From NCBI RefSeq assembly GCF_003334315.1, contig NZ_QOWR01000029.1: a stretch of DNA of 52,432 nt; one strand, given 5' to 3'. Positions 51,453 to 51,617 of the stretch are shown in pieces (position 1 is the first letter of the stretch; every line of letters begins with the position of its first letter). A program made the translations under genes and the position numbers. Under the pieces are notes generated by a model that was not told where the DNA came from, ran no database searches, and worked only from the letters and a program-made list of their open reading frames with translations. The DNA is from Escherichia coli (lineage in GTDB: Bacteria; Pseudomonadota; Gammaproteobacteria; Enterobacterales; Enterobacteriaceae).

Positions 51453-51489
51453 TGCTAACGTCAGATTGTTGACAAAGTGCGCGTCGTTC

Positions 51490-51592
51490 ATGCCGGATGC
51501 GGCGTGAACGCCTTATCCGGCCTACAAAAATCTTGCCAATTCAATATATTGCAGGACCATGTAGGCCTGATAAGCGTAGCGCATCAGGCAGT
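51490..51592. repeat. pair of REP elements in opposite orientation (BIME-like) between fepA and entD
   Basis: gccggatgcggcgtgaacgccttatccggcctac and, about 30 bp later, taggcctgataagcgtagcgcatcaggc. Coordinates approximate. Confidence 0.75.
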
Positions 51593-51617
51593 TTTGCGTT
51601 TGTCATCAGTCTCGAAT

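Follow-up and report, generated by a model that had tools for sequence, protein, structure and literature searches.

The REP and BIME elements of E. coli K-12 have been catalogued for decades. The REP stabilisers of malE-malF and hisJ-hisQ, reportedly the work of Newbury in 1987 and Stern in 1988, are said to be REP clusters of other BIME types, and Espeli, Moulin and Boccard reportedly described BIME-associated transcription attenuation in 2001. Papers of 1989 on the entD sequence reportedly already noted REPs between fepA and entD, with IS186 downstream. The element type and the REPs at fepA-entD are already known; our additions concern the replacement of a hairpin by the repeat, the coexistence of the two alleles, and the strength of conservation.

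REPs are imperfect palindromes, 20-40 nt long, that have a conserved GTAG at the foot and recur many times between genes, and a BIME-1 is a single-copy combination of one y and one z REP, the latter of type z1, with a long conserved L linker that often holds an IHF site (PMC3333891). In E. coli the 3' ends of mRNAs generally lie just past stable stem-loops, which resist PNPase and RNase II; this protection is documented genome-wide, and REPs account for a substantial fraction of the structures (PMC6061677). The fepA and entD genes are handled as one Fur-regulated operon (PMC4676285; PMC10763504), with separate entD promoters also mentioned (PMC10763504).

We analysed the fepA-entD spacer within a window of 52,432 nucleotides that corresponds to E. 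coli K-12 MG1655 in reverse complement, at 100% identity. Both genes lie on the + strand, and the spacer between the fepA stop (51452) and the entD start (51627) is 174 nt. A preliminary description of this DNA had proposed an opposed REP pair between the two co-directional genes, at 51453-51617, and had called it BIME-like. The pair was recovered as exact Y (+) and Z (-) matches that none of 100 shuffles reproduced, the interval spans essentially the whole spacer, and the BIME-like structure can be sharpened to a complete single-copy BIME-1 of about 152 bp. The features of the locus are:

49212..51452, + strand: fepA coding sequence, the upstream gene, with stop TGA at 51450-51452 (open reading frame list; MG1655 fepA, 610254-612494, maps onto the window).
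51453..51461, + strand: unique left flank TGCTAACGT, outside the repeat unit in a nine-copy alignment (A1).
51462..51613, + strand: complete BIME-1 unit of about 152 bp, comprising left arm, Y REP, L linker, Z REP and right arm (alignment A1).
51462..51491, + strand: left outer arm, with AGATTGTTGACAAA complementary to the right arm (inverted repeat I2; conserved in A1).
51492-51525, + strand: Y-type REP (iREP, GTAG-first convention) GCCGGATGCGGCGTGAACGCCTTATCCGGCCTAC, an exact query match with 0 matches in 100 dinucleotide-preserving shuffles.
51526..51560, + strand: L linker with an IHF-consensus-like site ATTCAATATATTG at 51539-51551 (dispersed linker; Rfam ES036 match).
51561-51589, - strand: short Z-type REP GCCTGATGCGCTACGCTTATCAGGCCTAC (GTAG-first on the + strand), an exact query match with 0 matches in 100 dinucleotide-preserving shuffles.
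51590..51613, + strand: right outer arm including the U-rich tract TTTTGCGTTTGT / UUUUGCGUUUGU at 51592-51603 (from the sequence; conserved in the family).
51614..51626, + strand: GAATATGGTCGAT, the unique flank on the right and ribosome-binding region of entD, whose Shine-Dalgarno sequence is weak.
51627..52247, + strand: entD coding sequence, the downstream gene, 206 aa (MG1655 annotation, open reading frame list, homologues named EntD).

The two REPs are arranged tail-to-tail, with CTAC and GTAG facing the 35-nt linker, and both are repeated palindromes of 29-34 nt tagged by GTAG/CTAC. One Y and one Z unit in inverse orientation, in single copy instead of a tandem array, are joined by the long conserved L linker; the outer arms form a further inverted repeat (51463-51476 with 51599-51612), and the U-rich tract at 51592-51603 begins 2 nt past the Z hairpin. 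BIME-1 fills 152 of the 174 nt, which leaves 9 nt of unique sequence on its left side and 13 nt on its right. These are the only REPs in the spacer; the flanking genes hold no further REP, and the whole window holds three.

The element is a complete BIME-1 (RIB/RIP; a REPIN-type REP doublet) and an ordinary member of its family. It shares with the BIME-1, RIB and RIP elements described by Bachellier, Gilson and Hofnung, by Boccard and Prentki, and by Oppenheim the inverse Y and Z units, the single copy, the long L linker with an IHF-type site and the roughly 150 bp of conserved sequence, and shows no structural difference from them; it sits within an operon, in contrast to a position at the end of a transcription unit. 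It also resembles the elements of REPIN-RAYT systems (Bertels and Rainey; Ton-Hoang, 2012) in having two inverted REPs that form a larger hairpin. The RAYT gene (tnpA-REP) is present in K-12 (PMC3333891) but absent from the window, and mobility of this copy is not indicated, because it is fixed at one site across Escherichia species.

The third REP of the window had been placed in the cstA-ybdD spacer, at 29567-29602. Its existence stands; its coordinates do not, being about 8 nt off:

29559..29592, + strand: a lone Y-type REP between cstA and ybdD that differs from the fepA-entD Y REP by one mismatch.

This spacer is 181 nt long and lies between cstA (29707-31812, -) and ybdD (29328-29525, -). 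Beside the REP, positions 29596-29700 hold a different dispersed repeat, rich in CCCCTC/GAGGGG palindromes, which we take to resemble the "boxC" family; E. coli genomes have it at a median of 16 places, and only 4046 of 5426 carry it at full length at the cstA-ybdD site. The window itself ends inside IS186B (52355-52432; MG1655 608007-609351). Relatives without the IS carry hokE/sok toxin-antitoxin loci directly after entD, with two copies in E. fergusonii (L015 4245-5046, L019 3819-4118, L005 5887-6042). Other Rfam matches in the window, unrelated to the BIME, are an rnk leader (17586-17694, +), a cspA-type thermoregulator on a csp gene (4158-4600, -) and STnc70 (22907-23000, -).

Other copies of the repeat define its boundaries. 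A search of plasmid records with the spacer, in which many of the records found are mis-binned chromosomal fragments, gave other copies that align to spacer positions 9-165 with 84-91% identity, and eight were aligned with the fepA-entD copy to give A1: rlmC-artJ (two strains), dppA-dppB, 3' of cueO, msrA-paeA, yfiE-srmB, mscK-rsmS and one unannotated site. The conserved unit runs from CAGATTGTTGACAAAGTGCGC to TTTGTCATCAGTCT, equivalent to 51462-51613 of the window (about 152 bp). A 321-nt query found at least 40 pieces in most genomes; for the linker by itself the median is 13 places per E. coli genome, and for the left or the right flank by itself it is 5. Of the seven other loci that were sampled, three have convergent genes on their two sides. 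The BIME-1 family as such is not an operon-internal regulator; an operon-internal position is the less common context among the sampled copies. The dppA-dppB spacer (L009 1501-1651) does hold a BIME-1 inside an operon, directly 3' of the abundant binding-protein gene dppA and in the opposite orientation relative to transcription, and is a useful second case for the stabiliser or attenuator idea developed below.

The dispersal of the linker also bears on whether it encodes a discrete sRNA (Rfam ES036/CssrF). The Rfam model RF02751 matches 51527-51568 with 40.5 bits, above its gathering threshold of 37.6, which taken alone would suggest such a gene; however, it also matches the BIME-1 linkers at dppA-dppB, yfiE-srmB, rlmC-artJ and msrA-paeA and in the E. 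albertii orthologue (L009 1565-1607, L013 1561-1603, L007 1567-1609, L011 1564-1606, L005 4901-4942), and so appears to model a dispersed repeat, not a single sRNA gene. We rejected ES036 as an sRNA gene since RF02751 matches the linker of every BIME-1 copy that scored. A consensus scan of the spacer found no sigma-70-like promoter, and any RNA seen from the linker would be explained by a stable decay product delimited by the two REPs. A dedicated sRNA is very unlikely here.

We next consider the RNA that the spacer would yield. The element is predicted to fold into very stable structures:

Whole spacer region, 51440-51640: -75.4 kcal/mol, z = -5.6 (predicted fold).
BIME unit, 150 nt, 51463-51612: -67.9 kcal/mol, z = -7.8 (predicted fold).
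Y hairpin: -21.4 kcal/mol, z = -3.9 (predicted fold).
Z hairpin: -12.9 kcal/mol, z = -2.8 (predicted fold).

Over the nine family copies, which are too similar for covariation to be informative, covariation is seen at only 2 of the 41 predicted pairs; outer-arm pairing is missing from the consensus fold. A terminator scan of 51000-52432 called no intrinsic terminator, with a loop limit of 8 nt that would miss the Z hairpin (a 7-bp outer stem enclosing 11 nt). The predicted anti-Shine-Dalgarno duplex is weaker for entD (-2.2 kcal/mol) than for fepA (-4.3 kcal/mol).

Could such a structure act on translation of fepA itself? The predicted whole-element fold begins at the fepA stop, with the outer arm 9-10 nt past it, and a REP in this position might lower fepA translation by stalling terminating ribosomes. 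Stalling was reportedly found by Liang, Rudd and Deutscher in 2015 for REPs very close to the stop codon, with a limit of about 15 nt. The Y REP, however, starts 39 nt past the fepA stop, well beyond that distance, and lower FepA would run against the need for an abundant receptor; we regard stalling as highly improbable at this site.

Two other readings of the spacer sequence were rejected. The TTGACA in the left arm is not a promoter, a usable -10 hexamer being absent. From GTG 51477 on, the entD frame crosses the BIME without a stop codon, but orthologous spacers differ by 1-nt indels (173 vs 174 nt), and because of these indels the spacer is not coding. The open frame (51477-52247, from GTG 51477 or GTG 51504) has a counterpart in large database clusters of 236-260-aa "EntD" proteins (P0002, P0003, P0028), of which P0002 (247 aa) has 2481 members. 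These entries are probably start-codon mis-calls inside the repeat, since the 1-nt indels in orthologous spacers break the frame.

We then compared the site across relatives. BIME-1 is present at the fepA-entD site in at least 5346 of 5426 complete E. coli genomes, and E. albertii, E. whittamii and three other species-level genomes of Escherichia have it in this position too; the contig search for the BIME locus returned five Escherichia loci, and EntD of Citrobacter, used as a protein query, retrieved no genera besides Citrobacter and Escherichia. The BIME is absent from E. fergusonii (spacer 49 nt), from six Citrobacter lineages (47-51 nt), and from 59 of the 5426 complete E. coli genomes, which have an E. 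fergusonii-type short spacer. The BIME-less spacers examined, which we count as eight, came from E. fergusonii, two E. coli strains, the Citrobacter freundii complex, C. rodentium, C. amalonaticus, C. farmeri, C. sp. NCU1 and C. sp. 50677481. One strong hairpin was found in 8/8, with predicted energies of -22.6 to -29 kcal/mol, beginning 7-9 nt past the fepA stop. The stems fall into six unrelated sequences and a hairpin is always there; therefore the structure is kept and the sequence is not. C. amalonaticus and C. farmeri have UUUUGGUUUU directly after the hairpin. The hairpin of the short spacer is not a dispersed repeat, occurring at a median of 1 place per genome.

The BIME and short alleles of E. 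coli and E. fergusonii have homologous flanks. The left flank TGCTAACG, the first 8 nt of the unique left flank in K-12, is common to the BIME-less alleles of E. fergusonii (L015) and E. coli (L019, L020); on the right, AATATRGTYGAY precedes the ATG, and the K-12 right flank GAATATGGTCGAT is homologous to AATATAGTYGAC of the BIME-less alleles. The 152-bp BIME therefore lies exactly in place of a 28-29-nt hairpin. Read from these alleles, the BIME has replaced an ancestral intercistronic hairpin, with matching boundaries.

In Citrobacter rodentium (L017 3501-4172) the EntD call of 223 aa begins right at the stop codon of fepA, and its frame crosses the hairpin between the two genes; MQTTHS, the homologue of the start in other species, lies 48 nt downstream, and the 223-aa annotation is probably over-extended.

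To this we add the divergence of the BIME-bearing spacer from K-12, set against the four-fold degenerate sites of fepA and entD (Fisher test):

Escherichia sp. E1V33 (L002): spacer 2.3%, four-fold sites 15.9%, p = 2.9e-07.
E. coli strain SCPM-O-B-8794, a separate GTDB species (L003): spacer 2.3%, four-fold sites 21.8%, p = 4.0e-11.
E. whittamii (L004): spacer 3.4%, four-fold sites 28.2%, p = 8.0e-14.
E. albertii (L005): spacer 5.7%, four-fold sites 32.9%, p = 4.9e-14.

In these four species, divergence at four-fold degenerate sites is 6-9 times that of the spacer, in comparisons that are not fully independent because interspecies recombination of fepA and entD has been reported (PMC13001218); for the same reason, the time at which the BIME was gained is not readable from the species tree. 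A further comparison, with L006, was mosaic and was excluded from the table. Coding DNA was compared over all sites as well, and the 174 nt adjoining the spacer on each side are less conserved than the spacer. Substitutions are concentrated in the linker and the right half; 51453-51525 (left flank, left arm and Y REP) has one substitution across five Escherichia species. The orthologues have in common locus-specific variants that depart from the family consensus, such as GCGCGTCGTTCAT and CTTGCC, and a single inherited insertion is therefore favoured over homogenisation to the consensus.

entD itself shows unusual divergence, with nucleotide differences of 7-9% between E. coli alleles and an amino-acid identity of 82% to E. 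albertii; fepA is much more conserved. The L006 entD is a mosaic, diverging by 1% in its first 174 nt and by 26% in its last 270 nt, which fits the reported recombination (PMC13001218).

Conservation of this kind could partly stem from family-level REP maintenance, not from a role in the operon. Taken further, BIME-1 would be a selfish or neutral REPIN-type repeat in a permissive spacer, without a role in expression, and conserved through RAYT maintenance or gene conversion. The family is indeed dispersed, with a median of at least 13 linker copies per genome, in unrelated contexts that include the space between convergent genes; TnpA-REP binds BIMEs and cuts them at CTAC and at sites in the linker (PMC3333891), and the fepA-entD BIME has the GTAG/CTAC tetranucleotides and a GGCC|TACA cleavage-type site. 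REPIN populations persist for millions of years (PMC8049555), and 59 E. coli genomes and E. fergusonii live without the BIME. However, conversion to the family consensus would erase the locus-specific variants, which are conserved along with the unique non-REP flanks; divergence far below that of synonymous sites (again 6-9 times) also speaks against a purely selfish element; and the event was not a simple insertion, as the BIME replaced a hairpin that is structurally conserved across genera. We consider a repeat without a role in expression unlikely at this locus.

The distribution of substitutions and the short alleles also bear on a possible role at the level of DNA, in which IHF on the L linker would shape local chromosome architecture or supercoiling where the strongly transcribed fepA gene ends, and effects on RNA would be incidental. 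The linker does contain an IHF-consensus-like site (ATTCAATATATTG, 1 mismatch), but this pattern is no better than chance in the window (49 found vs 43 expected). The linker, 51526-51560, is moreover the least conserved part of the element across species and carries the most substitutions, and the ancestral occupants of the site were plain hairpins in 47-51-nt spacers, without such a linker. An IHF-based role is improbable.

We favour a role of BIME-1 in the RNA, as a stable end for fepA mRNA that limits entD expression, and give this reading, which the preliminary description had already put forward, a probability of roughly 0.6; what we infer is how the element acts on the 3' ends of the mRNA and on the ratio of FepA to EntD. 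Indirect support comes from the hairpin in every BIME-less relative, from the conservation of the spacer, and from the documented protection of 3' ends by REPs and stem-loops. The comparative sequence evidence supports selection for a stable structure after fepA, which would be consistent with mRNA 3'-end protection or with attenuation. Within the Fur-regulated fepA-entD transcript, the BIME-1 RNA would fold into a very stable structure, and this structure would block 3'-to-5' exonucleases. Partial termination at the Z hairpin and U-rich tract is possible, as is Rho action on the poorly translated start of entD; involvement of Rho is speculative because the C-over-G bias just downstream of the BIME, at the entD start, is unremarkable (skew -0.24, reached by about 10% of windows). 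The outcome would be a stable fepA-only mRNA species, with a small amount of EntD made only from read-through transcripts that have a weak ribosome-binding site. BIME-1 would have taken over this role from the simple intercistronic hairpin that it physically replaced.

This arrangement is reminiscent of the malE-malF and hisJ-hisQ operons, in which REPs likewise follow the gene for an abundant envelope protein and precede genes expressed at low level, and in which an exonuclease barrier has been proposed to bring about differential expression. Their role was proven by experiment, in contrast to the role at fepA-entD, which we infer and for which there is instead the comparative replacement of hairpin by BIME. 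BIME-associated attenuation is similar in that a BIME between co-transcribed genes is proposed to reduce downstream expression. The stem-loops at the 3' ends of Rho-terminated transcripts (Dar and Sorek, 2018, PMC6061677) are similar in being stable hairpins without a canonical U-tract just past the coding sequence, 24% of them REPs in that study; in contrast to these, transcription at fepA-entD must partly go on into entD, and the structure would form the end of one of two mRNA isoforms, not the sole end. Our literature search found no paper linking REPs to fepA-entD and no transcript 3'-end, half-life or protein-ratio data for the spacer; fepA and entD are not listed in the SMRT-Cappable-seq supplements, and the fepA sRNA paper says nothing of the 3' end.

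We tentatively suggest, at odds a little short of even, that BIME-1 at this locus is an exapted repeat: it would have replaced a hairpin boundary for boundary, and since then been subject to stronger purifying selection than the coding DNA beside it. The finding in itself matters little, and the comparative result, a dispersed repeat where relatives keep an ordinary hairpin, is of modest value. Both alleles segregate in E. coli (BIME-1 in at least 5346 genomes and the hairpin in 59 of 5426), providing a natural, near-isogenic setting in which to ask whether a REPIN has a host function equivalent to that of a terminator or stabiliser hairpin. Whether REP and BIME elements serve the host or themselves has long been debated, and the question becomes testable at one locus.
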